A stretch of 64,000 nt of DNA from a virus (lineage: Duplodnaviria; Caudoviricetes): IMG/VR virus record IMGVR_UViG_3300025936_000020, positions 10,142 through 74,141 of that record. The stretch is one strand, 5' to 3'. Under the pieces are notes generated by a model. The model was not told where the DNA came from, made no database searches, and was given only the letters and a program-made list of their open reading frames with translations. Position numbers and translations under genes: made by a program. This document shows positions 33,208-60,373 of the stretch, one piece after another. Position 1 is the stretch's first letter. The number at the start of each line of letters is the position of its first letter.

Positions 33208-33404
33208 GCACTAAATCTGTGAGGTTTGAATTGGAAGGGCAACACGTTCACGGCTCACAGTGGTCGGTTATCGAGATTCACACGACAGAAGGCGCAGCTC
33301 GAAAAGGTGAACGAGAGTATAGGAAGTTCAACTCCGCGCAAAAAGTCAAAGGGTGGCGTGGCTTTCGAGTGATGCAGGTAACAACAGTTCGGAAAGTATT
33401 ATGA
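33204..33404 (+). CDS. Small hypothetical protein
   Basis: ATGA-coupled at both ends. Confidence 0.55.
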   Translation: MSTKSVRFELEGQHVHGSQWSVIEIHTTEGAARKGEREYRKFNSAQKVKGWRGFRVMQVTTVRKVL

Positions 33405-34378
33405 GCGAAGAACAACCCATCTCCCCACTGGGACCGAACAAGGCCCCGACCGTCGCCAACTGGGTGGAGCAATACAAGGAACTGAACAAACATCGCTGGT
33501 CGTGGGGCCATCTTCAGATCGTCGATCTGGAGATGCGACGACTGGCGCTGTTCTTCGGCCCCAGGGAGTTCACGCCGCAGGTGCTCGCCGAGTTTTGGGC
33601 GGAGACCCATGCCAGGAAAGCGAAGCCGTGGACGATCCATAAGACGCTCAGGGAGGTCAGGACTTTCGTTCTGTGGCTCGACGCAATGGAGTTCGTGGAT
33701 TACAAGAGATTCGCGAGCATCATCCGCGTGCCGCCCCCGCCTAAAGTAGCTGCGAAGATCTTCACTGAGACCCAGTACGAGAGACTGAAGGCGGCGGCCA
33801 AGGGGACGTATTGGTACTACGCGGTGATCATGGCCTACAGGACCGGAGCGAGGTACTCGGACGTCGCGCTGCTGAAGTGGGAGAACGTGCATCTGGACGA
33901 ATGCTACGTGCGCTATCTCCCGTTCAAAACCCGGAAGACGGGAAAGGAAGCCGTGTGCCCGTTCGATGTGGGCGGGGATCTGCACCAGGTCCTTCAGGAG
34001 ATGAGCCTGTGCAAAGGCGCGAACCTGAATGGATGGGGGGCCTACGTCTGCCCGGACATGGCCATGACCTATCCGGTCAACGGCGGAGCCTGCGGTGCCG
34101 GACCGCAGAAACGGCTTGCGTTCAAAACGCTTTGCGAGAAGAACGGATGCGCCGGCCTTTCATTCCACAAACTCAGAAACTCCTTCATGTCCCGGCTGGT
34201 CGGCAGCGGTGCGTCATATCCGCAAGCCACTCAGATCACCGGGTTGGCCACTACAGCGGTGTTCAACGCGTACGCCAAGCCGGACGTCGAAGCGCTCAGG
34301 AAGGTGGTGGAGAAGGCGGACAAAAAGGATGATCCGCCCACCGAGGGAACGATCATCAAACTACCGGGGGCTGCATGA
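33401..34378 (+). CDS. Tyrosine recombinase/integrase
   Basis: YRTGARYSDV (R), PFKT (K), FHKLRNSF (HxxR), C-terminal FNAY (Y). Confidence 0.85.
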   Translation: MSEEQPISPLGPNKAPTVANWVEQYKELNKHRWSWGHLQIVDLEMRRLALFFGPREFTPQVLAEFWAETHARKAKPWTIHKTLREVRTFVLWLDAMEFVDYKRFASIIRVPPPPKVAAKIFTETQYERLKAAAKGTYWYYAVIMAYRTGARYSDVALLKWENVHLDECYVRYLPFKTRKTGKEAVCPFDVGGDLHQVLQEMSLCKGANLNGWGAYVCPDMAMTYPVNGGACGAGPQKRLAFKTLCEKNGCAGLSFHKLRNSFMSRLVGSGASYPQATQITGLATTAVFNAYAKPDVEALRKVVEKADKKDDPPTEGTIIKLPGAA

Positions 34379-48000: not shown

Positions 48001-50990
48001 TAGAAATAGACGTTGCCTTTACCGAATCTGTCCGTTCCTTTTTCAAGGACCAATCCCAACTCCTGCGCGAGTCTCAGCCCTTCTCGGGCGCCTACCTCTG
48101 TTCCCAATTCCACGTACCCGAAAATGCGTTCTCCATTGGCCACAGATTCAACGGCGGCTTCTGCGTGCGAAAGACCTTCAGGCGGTTCCGGGCCAAATGT
48201 TCCTTTCTTACCCAAAGCCTTTAGCTCGGCATCGGATAACTTCAGCAGATCGAAGAACGGAAGAAGTTCTCGCGCCAATTCTGGAGTCACGCCTCTGCCG
48301 ATCATTCCCTGCTCCCCAAACCCTCCCGGCGTCTCCTTCCTTACCCGAAGTTCATTGAGCATGAGATCGATCGCCTGGGCCTGTTTTTCAGGCGTTGTGA
48401 TGTTGCTTTTGGGATCGATCTGGAATTCTTTCTGGGCGGCGATCGCTGCTCGGACTCTGCCCCAAAATTCTTCGCTCAACTGTTCCGCCGGTTTGTCCAG
48501 AAGATCGTTGAACAGCTCCGGATGATCCTTCAGGAGGTTGTCAAAGGTCCGTTTGACGATGCCGGACATCCGGCTGATATAGCGCGGTTCGGCGGTTACG
48601 ATGTTGCCGACCGTTCCTTCTTCTCCAGCCGGCTGATCAAGGCTTACATTTCCGGTTACAGTCGTGCGCGGTCTCCCTGGCTGAGGCACGGTCCCGGCCG
48701 GTGTCTTGGTAGTAACGCCCCTGATCGTGTCGATGTCCCGGCTGGTGAAGTATTCGTTTTCACCGGAAGCGTTCCGGTTAGCAAACCTGCGCTCGTTGTT
48801 GGAGAGAAAGGCGAGGATTGCCCGCTTGTCGAACCACGCGCCCCCAGGAAGTTTGCCCCACGATCCAGTTGGAAGTTCTGATAACGGAATCCGGTACGAG
48901 TAATGTTTCCCGCGCAGGAAATTCAGGAACCCGGCGGACGCACCAGACGGATTGTAGAGCATCCGCGCGGGCTTGATGTCGCCACTGTGCGGTTGAGGAG
49001 CCGGATGACGCCGCATCCGTTCCAGAGGAAACTCAGGAAGATCGATGGCCTGGTTGTTTTTGACTTCCATCCTGGCCGCCTTGTTCTCGGCGAGTTCCCT
49101 GGCGAGACCGGTGTTGAAGATGAACTCGTCAACCGGCGTGTCCACGTTCTCGATCTCTCCCGGCAGAGCAGCATCGGCCGTTGTTTCCTTCTCGGTGAGT
49201 CGAGGAACTTTAGACGGCTTGGCCAGAGGCTTTGGCGGATACAGCGCGTTCAGCCGGGTGACGATGTAATCTGACGACGGGCCAATGAAGTATGTCACCC
49301 CTCCGGATCCATCCACCCTCCGGATCTTCAGCCTCCCGGTGGCCTGGTTGTAGGCGTTGCGCCACGGTTTGCCTCCGCCAACAGCGGGTTCGTAAACGTT
49401 TCCTTTCCAGATGATCTTCCCGTCCTGCGTCACGGTCAGGCGCAACTTGACGGGTTCGTTGGCCTCAACGATCCGGCCGTCACTCAGTTGAATGATCGGA
49501 CGCCCATTCTCGTCCTTGGTGTATTGCCCGACGTAACCGTAGAGCTCTACGATGTCGCCTTCCTTCGCTTCCGGGAGCGGGACCTGGACGACTTCTTCAC
49601 GGGCAACCCCGCCGCCTCGTGCGCCAGCTTCCGCGCCACCGACATCGGCGGGCACTTTCCCCGCGCCTTCCGTCGTCCCTCCGGGCTGCTGCACAGTCCG
49701 AACAGGCCTTTCTGTTTCGATGTGTACGGCACTTGGAACCTCCGTTGTTGTTGGTGTCGGTTGCGTAATTCCAACCGGCGTTCGAACTTCCTCTTGAGCG
49801 AATTGGGCGGCAAGTCGGCGCAGTGGTGAAGCCGCTGGAATATCCCGCCTCAGCGCGCGCCTGAAGTCCCGTTCCAGAACTTCTCTTTGCGGTTCAGGAA
49901 TGGCGGGCGGGCCTGCTGGCCGAATCGGGATTACTCCAGCCCGCATAGCAGCCGCAGTGCGCTCCTCGGGAACCTCCAATGTCTGCAATGTTTCCCGAAG
50001 GTTCCTGAAATTGACCTTCTGCAGCTCCCGCTTCAGCCGATCTGTCTCGATCAGGATGTCGCGCTCGTACTCGGCCGGGTGCCCGCGCGCATAGCCGATC
50101 ACCCTGGGCACAGCGAACAGGAGGATGTTGCCGACGTTCTCCGCTATGGCATCGGCGATCTGGTCGTCCTTTCCCTGCCTGACCATCTCTGCGTACTCGG
50201 GCAGGCTAATGACTTGGGTGGCGGCCTGCATGAGCGCCTGGTCGACGACCGTCTCGATGGCTTTCTGCGCGACTGGGCTTCCGGAAGCGCCAAGCTTATT
50301 GATCAAAGTCGCGGCCGTCGGCTTCACCCAGGTCCCGACCAGCGGGTACAGCGCGCCGATGGTCGCCGCCTTGAGAGCTTCATATTCGGACCCGGTGCGT
50401 TCGTAGGCTTCCGCTCCGAACAGGCCGGAATAAACGGCGGCAGGCGGCAGCTTCGTGACGCCGGAGATCACAGCTCCGGCTGCGAGCGTTGGGGCGGTTT
50501 TGACGGCCGAGATGCCTCCCCTGGTCAGGGCCGCGGAAACACCGGGAACCTGTTGAAGATCCCGCTCCAGAGGTGTCGGTTCGTATGTCGTGAGAGCGCT
50601 CCGGACGTTCTCGAGAGTCGGGGGCTGACCTGTTTCCGGATAGGCTGCTCCAAGGCCGATGTCCTCCACTGCGCCAGCGGCTACGTTGCCAAGACCGCGA
50701 AGCCCCCGGAAGAACGTGCCCAATGGATCAAACCGCATAACCAGGTCAGGAACGGCGGTTTGGGTGGCTAGGAGATTTTTCTGCTGCCAAAGATCCTGCC
50801 TGCGCTGATCCCTGGCTAAGGCCTCGTCGAAGTTGGCGCTGCGCCCGATCGCGTCAAGATCGATTGGGGCGGGAGGAGGCGGAGGTTCAGGAACACCGGT
50901 GAGCGAGGGTTCCTGGTCAGATCCAATCGCGGTCCCCTCGACGGTTCCAGCTAATCGCCCGATCCTCTCCAGGTCCAGGGTGTCTGGCAT
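41937..50990 (-). CDS. Giant (3017 aa) internal virion / DNA-ejection protein, large-polyvalent-protein-like
   Basis: Position after tail and small pilot genes; zincin motif AHEFFH...EEYFAH; helical C-terminal region with hydrophobic segments. Confidence 0.8.
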   Translation of the reverse strand: MPDTLDLERIGRLAGTVEGTAIGSDQEPSLTGVPEPPPPPAPIDLDAIGRSANFDEALARDQRRQDLWQQKNLLATQTAVPDLVMRFDPLGTFFRGLRGLGNVAAGAVEDIGLGAAYPETGQPPTLENVRSALTTYEPTPLERDLQQVPGVSAALTRGGISAVKTAPTLAAGAVISGVTKLPPAAVYSGLFGAEAYERTGSEYEALKAATIGALYPLVGTWVKPTAATLINKLGASGSPVAQKAIETVVDQALMQAATQVISLPEYAEMVRQGKDDQIADAIAENVGNILLFAVPRVIGYARGHPAEYERDILIETDRLKRELQKVNFRNLRETLQTLEVPEERTAAAMRAGVIPIRPAGPPAIPEPQREVLERDFRRALRRDIPAASPLRRLAAQFAQEEVRTPVGITQPTPTTTEVPSAVHIETERPVRTVQQPGGTTEGAGKVPADVGGAEAGARGGGVAREEVVQVPLPEAKEGDIVELYGYVGQYTKDENGRPIIQLSDGRIVEANEPVKLRLTVTQDGKIIWKGNVYEPAVGGGKPWRNAYNQATGRLKIRRVDGSGGVTYFIGPSSDYIVTRLNALYPPKPLAKPSKVPRLTEKETTADAALPGEIENVDTPVDEFIFNTGLARELAENKAARMEVKNNQAIDLPEFPLERMRRHPAPQPHSGDIKPARMLYNPSGASAGFLNFLRGKHYSYRIPLSELPTGSWGKLPGGAWFDKRAILAFLSNNERRFANRNASGENEYFTSRDIDTIRGVTTKTPAGTVPQPGRPRTTVTGNVSLDQPAGEEGTVGNIVTAEPRYISRMSGIVKRTFDNLLKDHPELFNDLLDKPAEQLSEEFWGRVRAAIAAQKEFQIDPKSNITTPEKQAQAIDLMLNELRVRKETPGGFGEQGMIGRGVTPELARELLPFFDLLKLSDAELKALGKKGTFGPEPPEGLSHAEAAVESVANGERIFGYVELGTEVGAREGLRLAQELGLVLEKGTDRFGKGNVYFYKPENAAEAKRRMALLNVARYTRELMPAWGYLHGAILGYKPEDIAWFLTRHPLKDYARDNIAGARAVMDELQRGVSERGALIPTVKIQGRGNVPIAGFDRVDNPERYMAWLKAKGLNEQEVIKALGDLALQREFFEDSVTRGPQEANLQDARRLVDDPRNGLPDESKAVLRAMLDSPVMQYFTARPIRFRLVDYLRNLDARYDTARQLIEMTRTGDPLSGAHEFFHPLFEMLKQEDLNNLKRWRDEAIASEMKTATGKDLEDLKKLAASEYSVRQFIDAGINRELYRYSSVEEYFAHMLTERWNQERIGVWGQAKDAMAAQDGFVAKVKELIRVIIEAIKRSVPGLRTQADALRKQILSGNYDVLPPDGKLRDPQAMLESPEKIEKFLEPLEETETPEKFHEIASVLNKGLINPEAAGRFAALPEGVREELKDLYGGRIATHQEEAGPSFREVMRNPDLTPEEKSDYSRYALMEWQGFKADEEKIKNRLATANRKLEQLTLDAIEAIPETNEAEVRATNSLGQVLDKIKEEREKTAEGAQVNERIREGIDHLDALNDLLRSPVGMSHALRDISDLVGRRALTEERPGEEVLELISARSGFEGGVFATPAEWVRALARHLDRMRDPDGDNVIAASEDVIEATLWMLRQCGDWKQELLEARMADDGTLRRFNAEYLNDLRARVPRGFDSILRQYATAQVEADALRSASNRLNRKIINLEERRNNLQQGVEFINQHATDPTLKDFEKAMQETTGAISGMERTDDGWIVKLKHPLTGNEVRLNLGFEKGESQETLKMMAQLAEAGLEYGNRPDADPLKAAWWRHFEENLYHPLMALNPNFDILKDPIFDPIKEITKLKYFLLVESNLSKIPGILPAQTTRALGAFASAVKTEYEIARVFRNRMLNDNLIALRSHTNGLKDDVKTLRQWRDEVAGPIIDSMQHFGQIVYREGDRIGGWGHVITAEDMKAVKSQYGYDQRLIKLSGGAEKIPAVREFQTMVKEPAVPGRKERSMDVLRLALSRGPGTTTRYLTDESRALPAQWKLAVERNNVDTFLNQNDNFIKLVLGHVLEDDRDYVMLGKGRFASDYKRIRQDEQELMANNQMPTNIQDLSQFVADLHNMHLGEMEMPATAGDVRRALIEEVSGYMRKMQEDNEKKETSARVGIVSYENEYTQARGGKVAPGSLYRYGITDPIDVIRKGNNALEPYVVRVRDYLKLVENALLEEKRKLLGTLNEVYGNESVGTRMKAAKVVTEGIGEEGPSLLQRHQMTLEELNANIDRVGKLLGNFNDIIRRREEFYGDDLISQLAKPMFDASVGTVLLSPTTWIVNRASGEVTWAMKLAEVMRGGWLRAGPTLLKNHVKTFMRAVQRQFVPKTDRERIMKSLMTDAMEPVAEQFTGLLADIQDWEQMRRSGVIDAYDYKDALGWDRERPLLQNLRGSLDALRDIRAEPNLSLRSEIFGRLGMLPRGWAALWRKVGMRQVDNSINVQAIAISNSIADMLRKRAIRSFDARLESDPKFRQLYEQYGNNFKQFSLHLLGEHHLGIMLTPAELTGRYNPLNVRKAAVMIRRMFTRNNDPVDLVMLKYWWNQRNANGDRNAAFMTPGQRWALQFTLAEDANMATPNTRPTFFMGSRERQMLGVLSQWWLWNTDRMRDLYSKVRGQKTYAARYLPAVFGFLTATAVASLFGTTAGQKVNQALYNTLANTPGFWDAETDEERLKILTSISANYWGMIGSAIKMFTDTPGKLGYRNPVFLYNLATDLAGAAAKMWQSGDYTGPTLDLLARYNPALRAVINRLPGREGLVDLRNASNALRAATPDSLEARRRQPASGSDIRATPMTPLYNAILNAAMAGDWGTADEVFQRAVAQATALGIPNPEQAIVSAIRTRAPESAVFSRRLTDEERDLVYSRLKPAGREAVDKANSAFEELASRYGGGGGGAAGGARAAIAGAGGLRAGLPRSAALGGFIAGPGVVGLGGQGTLSLAPRPVRSSFRSRSLARGRRTRNLLRPVLARPRVGRRLRRLAL

Positions 50991-50994
50991 TCAA

Positions 50995-52119
50995 TCAGGG
51001 AATTGTTAATGGGCTGGTTGCAGCGCCGACCCTTGGAACATATCTTCCCCTGCCGGCTTTGACGAATTGATCGACCATCACCTGGTACGCGATTGCCTTC
51101 TGCCTGTCACCTCCCTGGACCATCGGAAGCTCGCGGACGATGATCGCTGAATCTTCTGGAAGGAGGAGCACGTCGCGGTTTGGACCGGCTGCATGACGGA
51201 CAGCGCGAACTCCGGGACTCAGATATTCGACCGAAGGCGTGGCAGGTGCGGCAGGTGCACCGGTCGTTGTTGTCGTCGGCGTGGCGGTTGCGCCGAACAC
51301 CGTCGGCATCGCACCGACCATAACGGCTTTGAACATATCTCCAACGCCGCTGCTTGAAGTCGTTGGAGCCGGAAGATCCCGGACAGTGATCGATTGGTCC
51401 TCCGGAAGAACACCAACCGGAGTGGGCACAGCATTTGTGGTCACGCCAAGAGCAGCCGGGTTGTTGGTCGGTATGACGAGATTACCAGATGCGTCCAGTT
51501 GGGCCGGTCTGAACGTCTTGGTCTTTGGGTCGGGAATGACGAGCTGAAGATCTTTGTCTTTGTCAGTAATCAACTTTCTGAGCACGCTGTTGTAGGTGTC
51601 CGTCTCTACCTTGAGCCGCTTCGGATTGTTCGGATCAGCCCATGTATCCTCGAGTTCCTTCATCGAGCCGGGCCAGAGGCCGTTGAACCACATTGATTTT
51701 CTGTCGGCCTCCTTTTGTGCGGCAAGATTAGTCTCCAAGGCAGAGTCGTACGCGGCCTTGTACCTGGCTGCGGCGGCTTGTGCCGCGGCGTTGACTGAGG
51801 AAATCCTGATTTTCTCCGGATCAGCTTCGTAAAGCTTGAGCTGCCGGTCGATCTGGCTCTGCCGGACTTTCTCGGCATCCTGTCTGGCCTCAAACTCCCG
51901 TTCCCTGAACAACCGGTTGTAGTCCTGATTCGCCCTGGCTTCTTCCAACTGCTCCTGGGCAAGCTGCGACTGAGCGCCGATCTGCGCCCGTGCTATGGAG
52001 CCTGCAGCAGCCCTGGCCGCCGCTTCACGATCCGCCTGGCGCTGCGCGAATTCGCGCGTGAACAGGGCGTCGATCGCCGGATGCGTGCTGGCGAAGGGTT
52101 GAATGTCGTAGGCTGCCAT
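50995..52119 (-). CDS. Putative internal virion (ejection) protein
   Basis: Ala/Gln-rich coiled N-terminus; position in the ejection cluster. Confidence 0.65.
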   Translation of the reverse strand: MAAYDIQPFASTHPAIDALFTREFAQRQADREAAARAAAGSIARAQIGAQSQLAQEQLEEARANQDYNRLFREREFEARQDAEKVRQSQIDRQLKLYEADPEKIRISSVNAAAQAAAARYKAAYDSALETNLAAQKEADRKSMWFNGLWPGSMKELEDTWADPNNPKRLKVETDTYNSVLRKLITDKDKDLQLVIPDPKTKTFRPAQLDASGNLVIPTNNPAALGVTTNAVPTPVGVLPEDQSITVRDLPAPTTSSSGVGDMFKAVMVGAMPTVFGATATPTTTTTGAPAAPATPSVEYLSPGVRAVRHAAGPNRDVLLLPEDSAIIVRELPMVQGGDRQKAIAYQVMVDQFVKAGRGRYVPRVGAATSPLTIP

Positions 52120-52122
52120 AGA

Positions 52123-53193
52123 TCAATTCCGCGCTGTTGGCGTCGGCGATGTCCACGGATTTTGGATTGTGTATGGGCTTCGGGTGCCGTACATCCTCGC
52201 AAAATAAGCGAGCATGTCTCCGTATCCCCCACCCCCACCTCCACCACCGACGTACGGCCTGCTGTCGTACTCGTAGCCTGGAATGCTCAAATCTTCAGCG
52301 TTGGCCCTGTCTGCCGCAGCAGACGACATCCACTTGCCGGCGCCCTTTGTTCCGGCAGGACCGCCTCCGGCAACGCCCATACCGCCCAGCATGCCGCTGC
52401 CGTACGCGCGCTCGTAGAGATCCAGGACGTCAGAGACTTCGTTGTAGATGCCGGACTGGACTTCGTTGAACCCGCGCGCGATGCGTTCCGCGCGGCCCGG
52501 CTGCCGGTAATACGCACGGTTGAGGTCCTCCTGGCCGGCCACGTCCTTGAGCAGGCCGAGATTCGCCGCGACATCCGATCGGGCCAGGCGGGTAGGTTCG
52601 AGATAACGCAAGGCCGGAATGTCCAACTGCCGGTACTGTTCGCCGCTGCCGATGATTCCGAGCCGGTTCAGGAGGTTCTGTTGTTCCAGATTCCCGGCCG
52701 TTCCGTAGGCGGCTGTCGAATATCCGAGAAGGTTCGGGACGGCCTGGGATGCCAATGCTTGGAGAGTACGGTCCTGGAGGAGTTGATCGTAAGTTCCGGT
52801 CCCCTGGTTGCCGTATCCGGCGCGCGCCTGAGCCGCCTTGCGTTGCCGAACCAATTCGTTCAGGGCAGGATTGATCAGAAAGTTTCCCAGCGCGTCCTGG
52901 TTCAGATGCAGAATGTCGGCGTAGGACTTGGTTGGGTCGTAAGCGCCGGTCGCGTACTGGTTCAGAAAGTTCAGGTTGCCGGAAGCGATCCGCCGGGCTT
53001 CAGGAGTATTCGCTGCGTAGGCGGCCAGGTAATCCGATTTGCCGGCAGGTGAAGCGCCGACATCGTACTCGTTCCAGATGTTGTTGAGCCTGGCCTGTCG
53101 CGACGGATCGACGGTCGTGTAGCGAATGTCCGGACGATCCGATCTGAAGGCGCCAGCGATTGCACCAGGGATGCTATTACCAGGCATGATCAA
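52123..53193 (-). CDS. Putative DNA transfer/pilot protein
   Basis: Gly/Ala/Gln/Asn-rich composition typical of podoviral pilot proteins. Confidence 0.65.
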   Translation of the reverse strand: MIMPGNSIPGAIAGAFRSDRPDIRYTTVDPSRQARLNNIWNEYDVGASPAGKSDYLAAYAANTPEARRIASGNLNFLNQYATGAYDPTKSYADILHLNQDALGNFLINPALNELVRQRKAAQARAGYGNQGTGTYDQLLQDRTLQALASQAVPNLLGYSTAAYGTAGNLEQQNLLNRLGIIGSGEQYRQLDIPALRYLEPTRLARSDVAANLGLLKDVAGQEDLNRAYYRQPGRAERIARGFNEVQSGIYNEVSDVLDLYERAYGSGMLGGMGVAGGGPAGTKGAGKWMSSAAADRANAEDLSIPGYEYDSRPYVGGGGGGGGYGDMLAYFARMYGTRSPYTIQNPWTSPTPTARN

Positions 53194-53196
53194 TCC

Positions 53197-53766
53197 TTAC
53201 GCTTTAAGTTGCGGTGCCGCAATGGGTTTTTTCACGAACCAAGACAGGCACTCGCAGAGGACCGGCTTCAAACTCTCCTTCTCGCAGAACTTCGTCACCG
53301 CAGTTTGGACCCCGCATTTGAAGTGCGGATCATCCCTGTCGTAATAATCGTGCCCTCCAAAGATCGCGCCTGGCTTCACTTTCGGCCACCAAAGGCGGAT
53401 GTCCCGGGTGATGTTTTCAAGGTTGTGATTGGCGTCCAGATACACGAAATCCAGCGATTCGGCGGCGAACATCCTGGAGGCCTGCTCGGAGGTTTCGCTT
53501 ATGAAGAACTTGTTCTGGTAGGGCTGGAGTCTTGCCACAGCCAGACGCCTGGCCTCCTCGTAATCGACCATGTTGGTGCAGTCGGTATAGACATCATCGG
53601 GCCACCGGACGTATGGATCGACCAGGAACAATCGGGCGCACTGCCATCGCTGAAGGATCTTTTCAGCGTTCTCCCCATAGAGCACCCCAATCTCTGCTCC
53701 GTCGCCATGCAGTTCCATTGAATTGAGCAGGTCACCGATCTGGTCCCGGTGCGTTATGTCCATCAT
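53197..53766 (-). CDS. Class I SAM methyltransferase (Methyltransf_24-like)
   Basis: GAEIGV..G, LVDPY, LDFVYLDANH, GAIFGGHDY. Confidence 0.85.
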   Translation of the reverse strand: MMDITHRDQIGDLLNSMELHGDGAEIGVLYGENAEKILQRWQCARLFLVDPYVRWPDDVYTDCTNMVDYEEARRLAVARLQPYQNKFFISETSEQASRMFAAESLDFVYLDANHNLENITRDIRLWWPKVKPGAIFGGHDYYDRDDPHFKCGVQTAVTKFCEKESLKPVLCECLSWFVKKPIAAPQLKA

Positions 53767-53984
53767 GGCGGAACGTCTCTGGCGGCCAGCAAAGCCTCGG
53801 CCAGAAGATTCTTCAGCCGGTCGTAGGACAGCTTCTGCCGCTCGTTGAAATCCAGCACGGCCTTCTGCATCTCCGGGAACCGCGCGAACGGCGTCACGTC
53901 AATGAGCGGGGCGTCTCCCAACGAAAGGCTTTTCAGCGCTTCGCTGCGGCGTGCGATTCGGACAACGTCAGCGGCGGTGGCCAT
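53763..53984 (-). CDS. Small hypothetical protein
   Basis: Coupled to neighbours. Confidence 0.55.
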   Translation of the reverse strand: MATAADVVRIARRSEALKSLSLGDAPLIDVTPFARFPEMQKAVLDFNERQKLSYDRLKNLLAEALLAARDVPP

Positions 53985-54154
53985 TAGTATCCTCCGCGTA
54001 TTCTACGGAGTCGGGGATTTTTTCTTTTGGCTGAGGCGCTGGCCTTCCGACCCGAAGAAGCCAAGATGGCTCCAGCGCGTTTGGTTGAGATTCCTTGCTT
54101 CTTGGCAATATCGGAGGCGACCGCCCTGAAACCGGGATGGGAGTTCTTTTTCAT
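53984..54154 (-). CDS. 56-aa basic phage protein
   Basis: Manual translation MKKNSHPGFRAVASDIAKKQGISTKRAGAILASSGRKASASAKRKNPRLRRIRGGY. Confidence 0.7.
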   Translation of the reverse strand: MKKNSHPGFRAVASDIAKKQGISTKRAGAILASSGRKASASAKRKNPRLRRIRGGY

Positions 54155-54160
54155 TCAGTC

Positions 54161-54189
54161 TTGACAGTGGGCCAATCGTACGATGAGAT
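54161..54189 (+). promoter_or_regulatory. Putative promoter of the RAMP cassette
   Basis: Perfect TTGACA, 17 nt, weak -10 TGAGAT. Confidence 0.4.
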
Positions 54190-54313
54190 CAAGCCACATC
54201 GTTTAAGGCCGATGATTCGAACAAACATACTTTGCTCCTTCGTCCGTCTGGGTCGGGTCTCCAGACTCCACCGCCTTAACTTTCGGGGGAAGGAGCGCTT
54301 TCAAGGTTGAGCT

Positions 54314-54940
54314 ATGAAACCAGTAATCATTGGAGCAATTGGAGGGACCACGCCAACGGACGGTGCGAACCGGCTAATCAATTTGAGCGAACCATACATC
54401 GCTGAAGTGCAGCTAAAAGGCATCGCGGATCTTTTGTTTCACCGATGGAATTGCGAGGCCGTGGCAGAGAAGGCGGCATCCAAGAAAGGATCAAAGCAGA
54501 GAAAAACTGACGATTTGGAAACGTTCGTTTATCGCAATGAACAAGGACTTCTCTGTCTTCCTCACACTTACTTGCGATCATCCATCGTGAATGCGTCCAA
54601 GTTCAGGCAAGACCCGCGTAGCACTCGAAAAAGCGCGATGGATCTTTTCAAGGCGGCAATTGTTGTTTCGCCTCCGTTGGCAACACTTGGAGTGAAGGAC
54701 TGGGATTATGAACATAGATGCCGCGTAACGATTCAGCGCAGTTCGATTACGCGATGCTTCCCAGCCATGCGAGCAGGGTGGACAGTGACGTTTCACGTTC
54801 AGGTCAATTTACCGGAGTACGTCGATGCAGATGCTTTGTTGGAAACGGTAGCGATGGCTGGAAGGCTAATCGGGTTCGGTGATTTCAGGCCGACCTATGG
54901 AAGATTTGCGGTTGTGGGTTTCAAAATCCTGACCGCTTAA
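54314..54940 (+). CDS. Solitary RAMP/Cas7-like RNA-binding protein
   Basis: LCLPHTYLRSSI (cf. RAMP PxxP.SS.KG..R) and C-terminal glycine loop GRLIGFGDFRPTYGRF; opposite strand to flanking virion genes. Confidence 0.7.
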   Translation: MKPVIIGAIGGTTPTDGANRLINLSEPYIAEVQLKGIADLLFHRWNCEAVAEKAASKKGSKQRKTDDLETFVYRNEQGLLCLPHTYLRSSIVNASKFRQDPRSTRKSAMDLFKAAIVVSPPLATLGVKDWDYEHRCRVTIQRSSITRCFPAMRAGWTVTFHVQVNLPEYVDADALLETVAMAGRLIGFGDFRPTYGRFAVVGFKILTA

Positions 54941-54943
54941 TGT

Positions 54944-55081
54944 GCTGGGCTGGGATCGGTCTTGTTCTGCTGCGATTAGATCGGTCTTTGATGTGATGTG
55001 TTCGGGTGGATTACGTTGGGATGGGCTGGATTTTTGCTTGGCTCTGATAGGATATGCTGTGCTGGGCTTCCGTCTGATCAC
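54944..55081 (+). repeat. 5-nt-periodic array: three blocks of 9 x (G-N-Y-N-N) + 1 nt
   Basis: 27 pentamers; position 3 is pyrimidine in 27/27, position 1 is G in 24/27; blocks start at 54944, 54990, 55036 (46-nt period). Confidence 0.85.
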
Positions 55082-57396
55082 TGTTCAGCCTTGGCAATAT
55101 CCAACCCAATCATCGAAAAACAGGCGCCACCGCCGCGGCCTCTAATTGCCAAACGATAGCTGAGAAACCTACCGCGCACGGCGGCATTGAAATAACCGGG
55201 CATCGAAGCCCGCGTGTTATTCGCGTCGTGCTGGGCTTCCGAAAATTCCGTGAGGCATCTGAGCGGGACCCCATTATCCGTCGTCATGTCCGGATTGACG
55301 ATTCGAAGGTTCTTGAAGCGCATGCAGGAGGCCTCCGCTCCGTATCCAAGCCATCCGAGCAGTGTGCTCGGCGTGGTCTGAGGTTCGGCCTTGTACTCGA
55401 CCTTCAGCCCTTTGCATACTTTCTCCTGATCGAGCCCGACGTTCTCGGCGCCGCTCTGAAGTATCGTGTCGTACGGGTTCAGGACGTAGAGCGAATTCTC
55501 AATCATCTCCCGGTAATAAAGCCCGTCGGCGTATTCCTTCAGCGCCCGATCCACAGCGCTGGCCATGACGAATCGCTTGATCCCGACGCAGCCTTTGCAA
55601 AAATCCTCCGGGTATTTGTTGGCCAGTACCGCGCAGAGTGATTCCGGACTTGCCGGCAGATCGGGATTCTCAGTCTCGTTCCAGATGCTCGTCGGGCTGG
55701 ACGTGGGCTCCACGTCATCAGACGCCGGGTCGCCTTCCTTGATCGTCGGCGGCATTTCGCTGCGGTCGCAGACGCCGAGTTCAACCAGCCAATCAGCAAC
55801 GGTCGGGAGCCGGTCAGATTCATAAACGCAGAACGCGGTGAAGCCGTGATCCACCAGGTCCGCTGCCTCCTGCCCGCGCGTCAGGTTGAAAACCACGGAC
55901 ACGTTCGGGCAGAGGTTTTCATCGGTCGGCCACGAAAACCAAAGCTCTTTCAGGATCGCGTTGTAGCCGCCGGTGACCAGATCGCACTGGTCGTTGTTCA
56001 GGATACCGTAGGTCGTTTCGAACTGGTCGATGCCCTCGAAGATCAGCTTGCTGGTGGCGCGCATCCAGGGGACTTCAATCGGGTTGGCGTCGGACAGCGT
56101 CATCAGCATCAGCTTGTCGGCGGACAGATAGAAATGCTCGGTGCCGGTGTTGACCAAGCTGAACTTGTATTTCAGGGCGTCCTGCCCGCGATAGATCTGC
56201 TCGAAGTTGAACGTCTCGCCGGTGGAAACCAGGGAGCCGCGGTGAATCGCCTGGTCGGAGTAGAGATAGATGTAATCCCCCAGCACTTCCATGCGGAGAA
56301 TGCGTTCTCCCGATCCGATGTCCTGGAATCCGGCCAAAGAATCGGTTGTCGGAATGAAGCTGATCGCATTCTTGAAATCGCTCCAGATGACCCGGTGCGG
56401 GAAATAAGCCCCGTCCTGCTCAACGTCGGCCAGAAACATGAAGCCCTTGAACTCGCACACGCATCCGACCTTGGTCACGTTCAGGTCCTGCAGGTCAGGG
56501 ATCGGTCGCGCGCTCCACAGATCGCAATTGCTTCCGTCTCCAGGTTGCGCCGAATCGTCGAAATACCAATACAACGGCGGATCGAATTCGTTAGTGAACA
56601 CCATGATCGAATCCAGCTGCGCGGAGAGAAACCGGCGCTGGGAGCAGCCCGCGCAATCCAACGCCGGATCCACTGTTCCCCCCAACCCGTCGGCCAGGAT
56701 CCGCCAGTTGCCCGTGCGCTCGTTCAGCGCGTACAAGCGGCTCTTGGTTCCAGCCAACAGCTTGCGGAAATTTCGCGGGCTCCTGAACTCGGCGAGGTAA
56801 GTGATGGCTTCACGGCAGCCAGAGCGCAAGAGCGGGACATCACCGCAGTAATCGGAGGTGTAACCGAAGACTGGATCGTAAATGCCCACGTAGGGCCCGT
56901 ACGGATACCCTGGCAGATCATAGCCCGGGGCCCCCATGTGGCACATGGTCCTGTAGTACGCGAACGGCGGGCCTGGGTAGAAGAAGTAGGCCCAGCAGGC
57001 GTTAGGGGTAAATCCAAGGTTGTATCCGCCCGTGTACGGGTTCCCGAGATGATTCAGGCTGTCCGCAGAGAACAGGCTGAAGCCAGCGTGATATCCGGTT
57101 GGATGATAGTACGAGTAGGCGTAATGGTCGAACTGCCCACCGCCGCTGAGGAAGGCTGAATACCCCAAATAATATTCCTGAAGGTCGATCAGCTGATCGT
57201 GCAGGTCCCAATTGTTCGAGCCGTAATCGGTGAAGAGTTTAGTCCATCCGCCACGCCGGCATCTTCGTCCGATCGCGCGAACTGACGCGTTCTTAACGAG
57301 GACGAAACTGCCCGCCGAAACGTCGTCCGGAAGTGACCGTACATCGAACAGGCCCGAAAGGGGTCGTACGGGGACTAGCCTGTATTGGGATGGCAT
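55078..57396 (-). CDS. Tail tubular B / stabilisation protein (beta-propeller-like)
   Basis: 772 aa; VIWSD...F.P, LGDYIYLYSD, ELWFSWP, RGRFLSYRL; position in the podovirus-like order. Confidence 0.7.
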   Translation of the reverse strand: MPSQYRLVPVRPLSGLFDVRSLPDDVSAGSFVLVKNASVRAIGRRCRRGGWTKLFTDYGSNNWDLHDQLIDLQEYYLGYSAFLSGGGQFDHYAYSYYHPTGYHAGFSLFSADSLNHLGNPYTGGYNLGFTPNACWAYFFYPGPPFAYYRTMCHMGAPGYDLPGYPYGPYVGIYDPVFGYTSDYCGDVPLLRSGCREAITYLAEFRSPRNFRKLLAGTKSRLYALNERTGNWRILADGLGGTVDPALDCAGCSQRRFLSAQLDSIMVFTNEFDPPLYWYFDDSAQPGDGSNCDLWSARPIPDLQDLNVTKVGCVCEFKGFMFLADVEQDGAYFPHRVIWSDFKNAISFIPTTDSLAGFQDIGSGERILRMEVLGDYIYLYSDQAIHRGSLVSTGETFNFEQIYRGQDALKYKFSLVNTGTEHFYLSADKLMLMTLSDANPIEVPWMRATSKLIFEGIDQFETTYGILNNDQCDLVTGGYNAILKELWFSWPTDENLCPNVSVVFNLTRGQEAADLVDHGFTAFCVYESDRLPTVADWLVELGVCDRSEMPPTIKEGDPASDDVEPTSSPTSIWNETENPDLPASPESLCAVLANKYPEDFCKGCVGIKRFVMASAVDRALKEYADGLYYREMIENSLYVLNPYDTILQSGAENVGLDQEKVCKGLKVEYKAEPQTTPSTLLGWLGYGAEASCMRFKNLRIVNPDMTTDNGVPLRCLTEFSEAQHDANNTRASMPGYFNAAVRGRFLSYRLAIRGRGGGACFSMIGLDIAKAEQ

Positions 57397-57406
57397 CGCA
57401 CGCGGA

Positions 57407-58072
57407 TCAGGTTTTTATGTAGGCGACCAGTGCGATGAACGGCGGGAGATTGTTATGCGCATTGTTGGCCGTGCCAGTTCCAAGCGGGATGTCCGTGTTG
57501 GTTATGTCTGCGCCGTCATGGACGTGCCCGCCGATTTGCACTCCGTTGAGCGTAAGGTCATGCAGGTTTTCGGTGGAGTTCCCGCCGTCGCATTTGTTCA
57601 TATTCGCGCTGGTCACAGTCAGCGTGCCAGGCCGGGCTTCGAGTGAAGTCAGGATGTGCGTTTCCTCTCCGCCAGTGTCGCCGACGTTCTGAGTACTTTT
57701 TTTGCCGACGATGAATTTACCTTCGATGTTCGGCACGTTGAACGTGGTTACACCGTCGCCGGCGCCGAATGTCGTTCCGATGACTGAAAACAGAACAGGG
57801 TTTTCCGCCCTGGAAACCGGCTGACCGTTGCATTGAAACCAGCCGGTTGGAGTAACCGTGCTGGCCCGCCAGAGAACCATTCCGGCGGGAATTATCTGCG
57901 CGTCTTGTTTGAACGCGTCCGACAACGTGCCGTCTGGATTCAGCATCCAAGTAAAGAAATCACAGAGCGTCTTCGGCATCTTCAGGAAGACGGCCAGAAG
58001 GCGGTCGCAGAGGCTCGAAGTTCCCGAAGGGACCAGGGCGCAGAACTCGGTTGGTTTGAGCGGGCTCGGCAT
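57407..58072 (-). CDS. Tail collar domain protein
   Basis: PTGWFQCNGQ.VSR...LFSVIGTTFGAGDG.TTFNVPN..G.F...GGEETH.LT..E...HNNLPP. Confidence 0.85.
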   Translation of the reverse strand: MPSPLKPTEFCALVPSGTSSLCDRLLAVFLKMPKTLCDFFTWMLNPDGTLSDAFKQDAQIIPAGMVLWRASTVTPTGWFQCNGQPVSRAENPVLFSVIGTTFGAGDGVTTFNVPNIEGKFIVGKKSTQNVGDTGGEETHILTSLEARPGTLTVTSANMNKCDGGNSTENLHDLTLNGVQIGGHVHDGADITNTDIPLGTGTANNAHNNLPPFIALVAYIKT

Positions 58073-58073
58073 A

Positions 58074-59849
58074 TCAGTTCGTTGTCACGCTGTTCCCGGC
58101 GATAATCAATGCGGATTTGTCCGCAGTACCTTGGCCGCTAGGACCTGCGGCTGTTCCGCCGGAGGTATCAATCGTCGCCGATGTCACTCCGCTGGCGATG
58201 CCGCGAGCAAGGATGTGATTCACGGACGCTGCGCTCAGGGCGTTGTTGTCGAAGGAGTACGTTCGACCGTTCGACATGATGAAGCTGGCGAGATTCACGG
58301 TGACGAGCGCTCCGTTGGGGAACGGACCAGGGCAATCGATGTTTCCACCGACAAAGGTCAACACCGGCGCGCTGAGCGTGACCATGTTGGGTATCAACTG
58401 AAGGTTGAAATCACCGACCAGGATGGCGGTCAGCGAGGGCAGGATGGCTGAGGGCATGGCTGACTGGGCCAAGCTGAACTCTAGATCGACTTTTATGAGG
58501 CTGTCCAGATTGAACGAGCCAAGCGTCGTCATTCCGTCGAGGAATACGTTTCCGCGAAAACGGAGCATACCGCGCAGATCCAGCGATGTGACGGCCGGCG
58601 GGTTATCCGCACCGAAATCTCCGAACGCCATCATCCAGGTCGGATGACTCACAGCGCCGGTCTCGAGGAAGAACATATCCTTGACCGCGCAGCCTTCGTT
58701 CGAAAACTCTGATTCAACATCGCCCGTGACGCCGCGGACTTTGTAGCAAAAGATGTCCATGCTCGCCATCGGTGTGGTGTCCGTGAAAGTCGTGAGGTTT
58801 CCAGCAACCGAACCCACCATCGCGAACGCCCCGCCGTTGACGCTCCTCCAGATCTCGTAAGTCTCCGGTTCCGTGCCTTCGGGCTCCCAGTTGATGATTT
58901 TGTTGCTGGACTCCGAGTTGATGTCCATTGTCATCACCGGGGCATCCAGCTCCACCGGAGCGGTAGCGCTCGATGTCGCGCAGGACTCCCCAATCTGCGT
59001 CGGGTAATTGTTGTCCGGATAGATCTGCACCAGCTCGGACAGGTCCAGGCCTTCAACGCAAACCCGGGTCGCGCGCGGCTTCAGGTCCTGCTCCTCGCGG
59101 AAGATGATGTCGCCGGCTTTCATCCGGTAATCGGCGTAAAGCCTGTCAGCGGTGGCCTGGTCTTTGTCTACGCGCCGGGCGACTTCCGATTCAACGTAAC
59201 AGGCCACGGCGTCCTTCAGATCGTCGTCGTCTGGCACGTAATCGTTGTCCAAGTAGGATCTCCGGATTCCCCGCCAGTGAACCCCGACCACGTACCCGCA
59301 GGGGAACCTCGGGAACAACCAGATCTTCTGGTTCGGTCCAACGGCGAAAAACTTCTCTGACAGCTTGAACCCGCAGTCGTCTTCAGGCGTAGCCGCAAGA
59401 TAAGGCGGCTGGCAGCCCGTGTTCCCGGAGACGTAATCCCCGCAATAGTACGGGTTCGCCACGTAGAGCGACGGCTCTGAAAACATCGATTGCCCGCAGC
59501 AGCATTGTCCGGTCTGATGACAGCGGCAGTGCTCGTAAAGGCAGGAGAGTTTCTCCAACGACGCCGAATCGTAGAAATGGCGCTGGCACCGGCAGGAGGG
59601 CTTGAAGGCGTACACCGCACCGATCCTTCCGCGGCATCCCTGGAGGATGGAAAGGCCGCAGTCGTCCCAGGACTGGTCTTTGTCGTAGAAGTTGACGTTA
59701 ACAAGTTGATACGACTCGACGAAGGTCTGGAGCTGAATCAGCGCATTGACGATGAAGTTCCGGAAAAGCGGGACCCTGGTTTCCGCTTGGCCGTCCGGAA
59801 ACACCAGCGTGTTGATCGCCGTCCTGAACGCGCTGAAGGTGATCATCAT
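58074..59849 (-). CDS. Head-tail adaptor-like protein fused to FN3 and LRR/receptor-L-like repeats
   Basis: Cys-rich N-half; FN3-like NW...YEIWRS...FTD...YKVRG; L..L..V.G.F repeats. Confidence 0.6.
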   Translation of the reverse strand: MMITFSAFRTAINTLVFPDGQAETRVPLFRNFIVNALIQLQTFVESYQLVNVNFYDKDQSWDDCGLSILQGCRGRIGAVYAFKPSCRCQRHFYDSASLEKLSCLYEHCRCHQTGQCCCGQSMFSEPSLYVANPYYCGDYVSGNTGCQPPYLAATPEDDCGFKLSEKFFAVGPNQKIWLFPRFPCGYVVGVHWRGIRRSYLDNDYVPDDDDLKDAVACYVESEVARRVDKDQATADRLYADYRMKAGDIIFREEQDLKPRATRVCVEGLDLSELVQIYPDNNYPTQIGESCATSSATAPVELDAPVMTMDINSESSNKIINWEPEGTEPETYEIWRSVNGGAFAMVGSVAGNLTTFTDTTPMASMDIFCYKVRGVTGDVESEFSNEGCAVKDMFFLETGAVSHPTWMMAFGDFGADNPPAVTSLDLRGMLRFRGNVFLDGMTTLGSFNLDSLIKVDLEFSLAQSAMPSAILPSLTAILVGDFNLQLIPNMVTLSAPVLTFVGGNIDCPGPFPNGALVTVNLASFIMSNGRTYSFDNNALSAASVNHILARGIASGVTSATIDTSGGTAAGPSGQGTADKSALIIAGNSVTTN

Positions 59850-60373
59850 GGCATTGGAGAAGGAGCAGGAGCGGCTGGAGCAGGTGGCGGCGGTGAAAGC
59901 GAAGAGGGCGCCCTTGGGATTCGGCCGACTTTCGGCTTCGTAAACTGGCTAGGTGTCGCCAGAGGTTCAACCTTCTGCTGGCTGGCCTGCTGCTGCGCGT
60001 GCCCGGGCCCTGCAACCACGGTCGGCTGCCCTGGAGCAATCCCGCTAACGACGGCGGCTGCGCCCGCAGCACGAATGGCTTGCAGTTGCTGGAATGGGAT
60101 CGGCCCCAGCACTTCCCGGTCCTTGGGCTGCGATGAGCTCGAAGATTGCTCCGAGGCTTTTTTTTTCTCAACCCAGGTCCCGTACTCCTCCGCGCCCAAA
60201 GCAACGACTCCGCCGACGTGCATCTTCACCGCCTTGTCCAGCTCGGTGATGAGGTATTGGTCTTCGGTGGCAAGAAGTCCATAATCGCCGCCAACGCTTT
60301 CAAACGGGGCCTTCGCGCCGTTTGGGAGATATAAGGGGCGTGTTAACTTTTCCTTTAAGAAGAATCGACTCAT
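59846..60373 (-). CDS. Hypothetical virion-region protein with Pro-rich tail
   Basis: Coupled to the adaptor gene. Confidence 0.6.
   Translation of the reverse strand: MSRFFLKEKLTRPLYLPNGAKAPFESVGGDYGLLATEDQYLITELDKAVKMHVGGVVALGAEEYGTWVEKKKASEQSSSSSQPKDREVLGPIPFQQLQAIRAAGAAAVVSGIAPGQPTVVAGPGHAQQQASQQKVEPLATPSQFTKPKVGRIPRAPSSLSPPPPAPAAPAPSPMP

Follow-up and report, generated by a model that had tools for sequence, protein, structure and literature searches.

A predicted phage-borne VIPR guide array with a G-H-U scaffold and a Vipr homologue in which the G2-clamping arginine is replaced

Genomic context of the vipr cassette

The window (the whole stretch of 64,000 nt analysed here) belongs to a metagenomic virus record of 74 kb that is about 95% complete and carries integrase, primase-helicase, tail collar and virion genes. 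On its plus strand, a gene encoding a 208-aa protein predicted to be Vipr, a stand-alone Cas7-like RAMP (vipr, 54314..54940), is followed 3-4 nt past its stop codon by a tract of 138 nt (54944-55081), which is made of 27 pentamers arranged in three 9-unit blocks with one spare base after each. The last bases of the third block overlap the stop codon of a convergent 772-aa virion structural gene on the minus strand (55078..57396; phrog_3287, E=1e-15; 88% identical in the closest relative, L079), and this convergent gene bounds the array on its 3' side. A terminator-like hairpin with a T-run was observed on the minus strand at 55126-55139, within the final ~20 codons of the 772-aa ORF; this gene or its transcript may in truth end elsewhere than in the ORF as called.

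The vipr cassette lies inside the block of virion genes, which are encoded on the other strand. Most relatives carry vipr within the replication module, flanked by a DUF669 gene (44 loci) and a ResIII/Helicase_C helicase (29 loci); in L001, L079 and the window it instead stands alone and converges on a large virion gene. No vap gene was found beside vipr, there was no conserved plus-strand neighbour, and the small frames upstream of vipr had no homologues in the relatives apart from the non-coding leader. The presence of a tyrosine integrase (33353-34378; phrog_1) points to a probably temperate phage. Neither tRNA genes nor a tRNA-like att fragment were found in the 74-kb record, and the isolate phage relatives were uninformative on the host.

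A candidate -35 element, TTGACA, is present upstream of vipr on the plus strand (54161..54166), with TTGAC at the same place in L001. It is read here as the putative -35 of the cassette's own promoter; a sigma-70 consensus scan called no promoter at this position and the -10 is weak. The 5' leader of vipr (54197..54296, plus strand) is predicted to form a long-range stem, GCUCCUUC/GAAGGAGC, around the hairpin GUCUGG...CCAGAC. The leader is ~70% identical to that of L001 and contains perfectly conserved blocks, while the two proteins are only ~60% identical, and the leader blocks are also present upstream of vipr in L232. RNAalifold of the leader (two sequences) gave 25 pairs, 2 of them compensatory. 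The stem may sequester a Shine-Dalgarno-like GGAG, and the leader could be an autoregulatory element.

Layout and unit statistics of the pentamer array

Block 1 consists of nine units (54944-54988) followed by a T at 54989, with GG GG CG TT CT GC TA CG TT at the fourth and fifth unit positions (N4N5). In block 2 (54990-55035), the units occupy 54990-55034, the spare base is the T at 55035 and N4N5 reads GT GT CG GG AC GG GG GG TT. Block 3 (55036-55080, with C at 55081) reads TG CT AG AT GT GG TC CT CA. A candidate "unit 0", AATGT (54939-54943, plus strand), is in register with block 1, overlaps the vipr stop codon and is identical in L079; block 1 would possibly comprise 10 units if it were counted in.

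Across the 27 units, position 1 is G in 24, A in two and C in one; position 2 is C or A in nine units each, T in seven and G in two; position 3 is T in 25 and C in two, so that it is a pyrimidine in 27/27; position 4 is G11/C7/T6/A3; and position 5 is G12/T10/C3/A2. The information relative to background was 1.21, 0.22, 1.85, 0.08 and 0.32 bits for positions 1 to 5. G1 and T3 occur together in 22/27 units when two +1 phase resets are introduced and in 9/27 without them, indicating that the phase resets are genuine. Shuffling the region 20,000 times gave a mean of 5.8 units and a maximum of 13, compared with the 22 observed.

The original prediction had described three 46-nt stretches, each of nine units plus one base that resets the phase, with T at position 3 in 25 of 27 units and C in the other two, a bias to G/T at position 5, and U-runs at the ends of blocks 1 and 2. 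The counts and shuffles bear out the block structure, the recounts of positions 3 and 5 (G12/T10 of 27) agree with it, and the U-runs closing blocks 1 and 2 are confirmed (CUU+U and UUUU+U). The prediction made no remark on the units that lack G at position 1. The richness in G/U at position 5 (22/27 in the window) was also observed in L079 (16/23 over 184-295), and the position is near uniform in the other relatives; the composition of the targets, or a pairing that tolerates wobble, could account for it.

The array is present on the plus strand only, and in the rest of the 64-kb window no score above ~10 was obtained on either strand, apart from shifted copies of the array itself. Tandem Repeats Finder reported no repeat for the array region, because just two of the five unit positions are fixed. 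Neither an Rfam family nor a CRISPR repeat was found in the surrounding 10 kb (50000-60000). The predicted fold of the array RNA was not significant (z=0.54), which fits a presented guide, for which absence of structure is expected.

The 208-aa protein and the VIPR family

The 208-aa ORF matched phrog_4652 (E=4e-17), which is annotated as of unknown function, and no Pfam family. A profile built from 32 homologues matched PDB 36pp, "SUSP1 Vipr protein", with E=1.5e-9; with the single sequence the E-value was 2e-4, and the alignable part was the C-terminal 75 residues only. In the AF2 model (pLDDT 83), a beta-hairpin thumb is predicted at residues 132-152 and a G-loop, GFGDFRPTYGRF, at 187-198, and the best Foldseek matches of the model were type VII Cas7 and type III Csm3 (E ~1e-6). 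By sequence and predicted fold, the 208-aa product is homologous to Vipr.

VIPR (Viral Interference Programmable Repeat), a CRISPR-like system for silencing DNA under RNA guidance, was first described in 2026 (10.64898/2026.04.26.720920, 10.64898/2026.04.26.720927, 10.64898/2026.10.15.759431). As set out in the text of the first preprint, Vipr is a small ancestral RAMP that polymerises on a vrRNA of 9-16 GGY/NN pentamers (10.64898/2026.04.26.720920); the two companion preprints treat the cryo-EM mechanism and phage-satellite biology (10.64898/2026.04.26.720927, 10.64898/2026.10.15.759431). According to the text of these preprints, the NN dinucleotides pair with double-stranded DNA, every third target base being skipped, transcription is thereby repressed, and in nature the system is directed at rival phages, satellites and prophages.

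Homologues of the 208-aa Vipr are encoded in 80 viral loci, and a further search at E<=1e-20 gave 4,897 in a large protein collection. Most of the viral loci have long arrays of period 5 with the consensus G-G-Y-N-N, which lie directly upstream and/or downstream of the gene. A G.T detector placed the array on the strand of the gene in ~40 loci, compared with 3 weak matches on the minus strand. Judged on these sequence relationships, the tract in the window is predicted to be the vrRNA array of a phage-borne VIPR system whose Vipr is encoded directly upstream on the same strand.

Register and code positions

The guide-array character of the tract, which the original prediction had proposed from the letters alone, is upheld by the adjoining vipr gene and by the pentamer architecture, strand and position that it has in common with the family. 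The prediction had left the register ambiguous between G-H-Y-N-K and K-G-H-Y-N; the former is correct, as it aligns with the GGY-NN arrays of the relatives and with the residues of SUSP1 that bind G1 and Y3. It had also offered two codes, one at positions 4-5 and the other at positions 2 and 4. The first is the published VIPR code and is the one supported by the comparison with L079, in which units 2-8 have the same N4N5 as window units 13-19 (7/7); the second fails, since position 2 differs in five of these seven homologous units.

The flanks of the window array and of the L079 array are ~95% identical, and the arrays themselves differ in length (27 vs 22 units) and in content. The common N4N5 run, GG AC GG GG GG TT TG, extends over 55005-55040 in the window, that is, units 4-9 of block 2 and the first unit of block 3. 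No run of at least 7 units was obtained in 5000 shuffles of the unit order. Inside the run, positions 1 and 2 differ at 7 of 14 sites (position 2 in 5/7 and position 1 in 2/7). N4N5 identity within the run holds by construction, and the informative observations are the length of the run and a scaffold turnover far above that of the flanking DNA. This long run together with the scaffold turnover indicates that the code is at positions 4-5, and N4N5 is the hypervariable, information-bearing part of the unit.

Covariation of the scaffold with the Vipr G2 contact

The scaffold of the window array is G-H-U and not the published G-G-Y. G at position 2 was observed in 2/27 units in the window, 2/22 in L079, 0/13 in L001 and 1/19 in L230, compared with 44-97% in 68 other loci. 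For the relatives pooled, G2 was 74%, and the values of 100% for G1 and for Y3 in this pooled scaffold are imposed by the unit filter. Among 70 scorable loci, the window and L079 were outliers, with 7-9% G2 and 85-87% U3, while U at position 3 elsewhere ranged from 9 to 71%. Over the four G-H-Y loci, G2 is present in 5/81 units against a background of ~29%.

The structural basis of the canonical scaffold has been reported for SUSP1. In the text of the VIPR structure preprint (PDB 36pp), G2 is held by a salt bridge with R138 of the thumb and by stacking on W178, and R138A abolishes silencing; E71, M72 and R179 shape the Y3 pocket. The contacts further include G1 by H17 and D177, Y3 by R179, and K33 to the target backbone at the skipped base (PDB 36pp). 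The Vipr of SUSP2 (GenBank), the numbering of which agrees with that of the SUSP1 chain and which is identical to it over the 72 residues compared, was added to the family alignment. In this alignment, H17, K33, D177 and R179 correspond to H43, K58, D190 and R192 of the window protein and are invariant in 32 sequences.

The G2 clamp, formed by R138 and W178 in SUSP1, is not kept in the window protein. At the position of R138, the window protein has F149 and L001 has W, while 30 of the 31 other aligned relatives have R; at the position of W178, the window protein has F191. E71 of the Y3 pocket corresponds to T85 in the window, to A in L001 and to E in 30 others. Among the 117 database homologues with a readable motif, the R138 equivalent is R in 113; the exceptions are P0001 with F (94% identical to the window protein), P0068 with F, P0103 with W (identical to or near L001) and P0025 with L. 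The change from R138 to F149 in the protein thus matches the loss of G2 in the array RNA.

All loci without the arginine and with a readable array have a G-H-Y scaffold, including L001 (13 units) and L230, the locus of P0068 (19 units); P0025 stands outside the comparison because its array lies beyond the contig end. In a quick tree, the R-bearing L003/L004 and L006 were placed between the F clade and the W clade, and the G2 content of these loci (62-64%) belongs to the lowest tier. Since the F and W clades are split by this R-bearing group, the change would have arisen once or twice. The G-H-Y scaffold and the change from Arg to an aromatic residue persist together across proteins that are 60-63% identical. 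As read from aligned proteins and arrays, loss of the R138 equivalent covaries with loss of G2, a clean protein-RNA covariation. Such covariation ties the array to its own Vipr and supports the structural model.

Three 9-unit segments as guides

By analogy with SUSP1, the array would be co-transcribed with vipr, and one Vipr protomer would bind each pentamer, sequestering positions 1-3. Positions 4-5 would then be presented to double-stranded DNA in an NNxNNx pattern in which one base is skipped, and the DNA so bound would be transcriptionally silenced. The extra base after each ninth unit would break the 5-nt register and give three 9-unit segments, each specifying a 26-bp gapped site, whether the segments are cut apart or stay on one RNA. 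The likeliest targets, again by analogy, would be a competing phage or a prophage.

That the VIPR array works as three functional 9-unit guide segments is the main reading, with a probability of roughly 60%. Nine units are within the published range of 9-16, and block sizes are equal inside each array, with 9/9/9 in the window and 11/11 in L079; L001 has a single block of 13 units, which ends at an intrinsic terminator. The blocks are separated by one base only, with no 3' tail or handle between them. For other VIPR types, the first preprint describes "staggered" arrays that have no tails, the end of one vrRNA being the start of the following one, as far as its text and the reference to fig. 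S18 go (10.64898/2026.04.26.720920).

It is also possible, although on the unlikely side, that the array is a VIPR array whose blocks are not separate guides, the +1 bases being incidental slips in T-runs or the guide boundaries lying elsewhere; in the latter form, there would be one long bulged RNP, or the RNA would be processed at places that have nothing to do with the phase resets. Both internal resets do lie in T-runs, and the block boundaries carry neither tail nor handle. The N4N5 run common with L079, which is in phase there, may cross the boundary between blocks 2 and 3 and goes one unit past it, which counts against three separate guides, but the chance expectation of this single extra matching unit is ~5%. 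Arrays without resets also exist: L230 has 19 units in phase, and 31-142 units were observed in other relatives. Across the wider family (52 arrays), shifts of phase in both directions were counted (-1 in 136 cases, +1 in 155, and others) with in-phase runs of up to 142 units, and phase shifts are not a general guide delimiter elsewhere in the family. Against incidental slips, blocks of equal size are improbable from random indels, as simple arithmetic gives 1/325 placements for 9/9/9 and 1/21 for 11/11. In addition, a one-base insertion breaks the register of one protomer per 5 nt, and distinct functional segments would be expected either way.

Other ways of ending modules were observed among the relatives. 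In L003 (4607-5019) and L006 (4603-5013), modules of ~31 units are closed by a small GGGCC-N4-GGCC hairpin; in the downstream arrays of L015 and L025, long hairpins separate the repeat tracts; and L054, L059 and L068 have conserved tails of roughly 50 nt.

A dead remnant of a decaying GGY array, in which the second G has eroded, is very improbable. The canonical G-G-Y consensus is indeed absent, and no vap, tail or target was found; however, G1 and Y3 are near-invariant and G2 is actively avoided (the 5/81 units against ~29% given above), which neutral decay would not produce. The vipr ORF is intact and all other contact residues are kept, the matched pair of G-H-Y scaffold and aromatic residue persists at 60-63% protein identity, and the window and L079 have N4N5 in common although their scaffold letters have changed.

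TRAP-like ring proteins bind RNA sites with a 5-nt period, and a 67-codon frame (54942-55145) is open over the tract, but it is hardly credible that the tract is no guide array and instead a small coding gene, a TRAP/CsrB-type RNA sponge or a DNA site (pac, origin or iterons), as this frame is interrupted by three stops in L079, a period of 5 nt is not that of coding sequence, no Rfam family matches, the array is strand-specific and tied to the Vipr gene in dozens of loci, and its scaffold covaries with the G2 contact of Vipr. The small ORF was ruled out because its frame is not conserved in L079, the readings as TRAP-like or sponge RNA, as pac/origin and as Chi-like sites were abandoned after the link to Vipr, and a G-quadruplex was ruled out also by an array without GG.

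Target searches

The target scans covered exact or near-exact matches and are of low power, with 18 informative bases per block. In the phage's own genome, with skip lengths of 0-3, the best self-target was 14/18 at a skip of 1, which is at chance level; the text of the VIPR preprint likewise has no self-target. The original prediction had proposed a search with gapped patterns of the three blocks, and these patterns gave no exact match in viral contigs, while in larger collections the matches were at chance level apart from one uncorroborated cluster. With exact 1-nt-skip patterns, viral contigs yielded 0 matches each for the three blocks, both L079 guides and the L001 guide; likewise, the two guides of higher information content gave 0 matches, the L001 guide in genome contigs and L079 guide 1 in metagenome contigs. 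Block 3 had 4 unrelated matches in metagenome contigs. A search of viral contigs seeded with the 7-unit core sampled 81 sites, whose extensions were no better than binomial.

Block 1 had 9 matches in genome contigs compared with a uniform expectation of ~17 (18 specified bases, 596 Gb). Five of them are singletons in different phyla, the annotated ones lying in housekeeping genes (Mfd, MutS, a DinG-like helicase and a STAND ATPase). The other four, exact over the 18 informative bases (L082:3536-3561, L083:3560-3585, L087:7447-7472 and L089:1234-1259), fall on one homologous secA promoter site in four related Verrucomicrobia-type MAGs and count as one independent event. The site is promoter-like (TTGAC-N17-TAGCGT) and ends 26 nt before the start codon of secA (SecA_DEAD, E=5e-100).

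That block 1 is a guide against the host secA promoter, rather than against a rival phage, is doubtful and regarded as quite unlikely. If it were true, a temperate phage would use VIPR to shut off an essential host secretion gene; no mention of a host secA-type target was found in the available text of the three VIPR preprints. In the genomes with the secA site, matches of blocks 2 and 3 with at most 3 mismatches were equal to the control level, the L079 guides had no match, Vipr was not found, and the integrase region had no DNA match. The 772-aa virion protein had no homologue in 401 genomes of the phylum of these MAGs, and tetranucleotide usage did not discriminate. With at most 1 mismatch, block 1 had 8 matches in 301 sampled genomes of the order of the MAGs, compared with 5 for the control, and ~3 of these 8 resemble the secA site by sequence. 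No target above chance was obtained in any search.

Significance of the variant scaffold

The scaffold rule of VIPR, in which G-G-Y is gripped by the protein and N-N left free, rests mainly on one coliphage system. The present locus and its three sister lineages are a natural experiment in which R138 has changed to Phe or Trp and G2 has been dropped, while G1 and Y3 are kept, and they provide independent support for the Vipr structural model. The scaffold "grammar" co-evolves with the protein, so that detectors based on GGY will miss such arrays. F149 and T85 are candidate residues for engineering orthogonal Vipr/vrRNA pairs, and tail-less equal blocks with single-base gaps suggest another way to delimit guides.

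Comparison with known systems

Class 1 CRISPR effectors of the Cas7/Csm3 type (types III and VII) likewise have an RRM core, a thumb and a G-loop, and likewise form a backbone with one protomer per guide repeat unit and a base flipped at each thumb. They differ in having a 6-nt period and a contiguous guide, whereas the window array has a 5-nt period and would be read as a gapped guide. A repeat-spacer CRISPR array was not found (Tandem Repeats Finder; Rfam over 50000-60000), nor were other cas-like neighbours, and the locus is not a CRISPR-Cas system.

The closest system is type II VIPR (SUSP1, Pseudomonas fulva prophage; PDB 36pp). As in the window, a stand-alone Cas7-like Vipr of ~20 kDa is encoded in a phage, a pentamer array lies by the gene on the same strand with G1/Y3 fixed and N4N5 variable, blocks are of 9-16 units (9 in the window), the residues contacting G1, Y3 and the backbone are kept, and there is no self-target. 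The SUSP1 Vipr sequence is, however, very distant from that of the window, and a vap gene is present there, while none was found in the window. The scaffold is G-G-Y there, whereas G2 is avoided in the window, and R138 and E71 are replaced by Phe and Thr; each guide there is capped by a 40-nt structured tail/pseudoknot, where the window has a single base.

Non-canonical VIPR arrays that are likewise tail-less or have a relaxed scaffold (NNNGG, YNNNG and NNNNG) appear in the text of 10.64898/2026.04.26.720920, the authors of which allow "a related consensus" beside G-G-Y. In the YNNGG notation, the window array is YNNGN, the G beside Y being lost and the other G kept. YNNGN is absent from the list of alternative consensuses in the Methods text of that preprint, figs. 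S17/S18 aside, and a link between loss of R138 and the scaffold was not found in the VIPR preprint text; the variant described here is tied to a specific contact residue of a solved structure (R138, PDB 36pp). The locus is thus not a new class and is a member of the recently described VIPR. What is new is the G-H-U scaffold with the matching loss of the G2-clamping arginine, together with tail-less equal blocks that are separated by single-base gaps.
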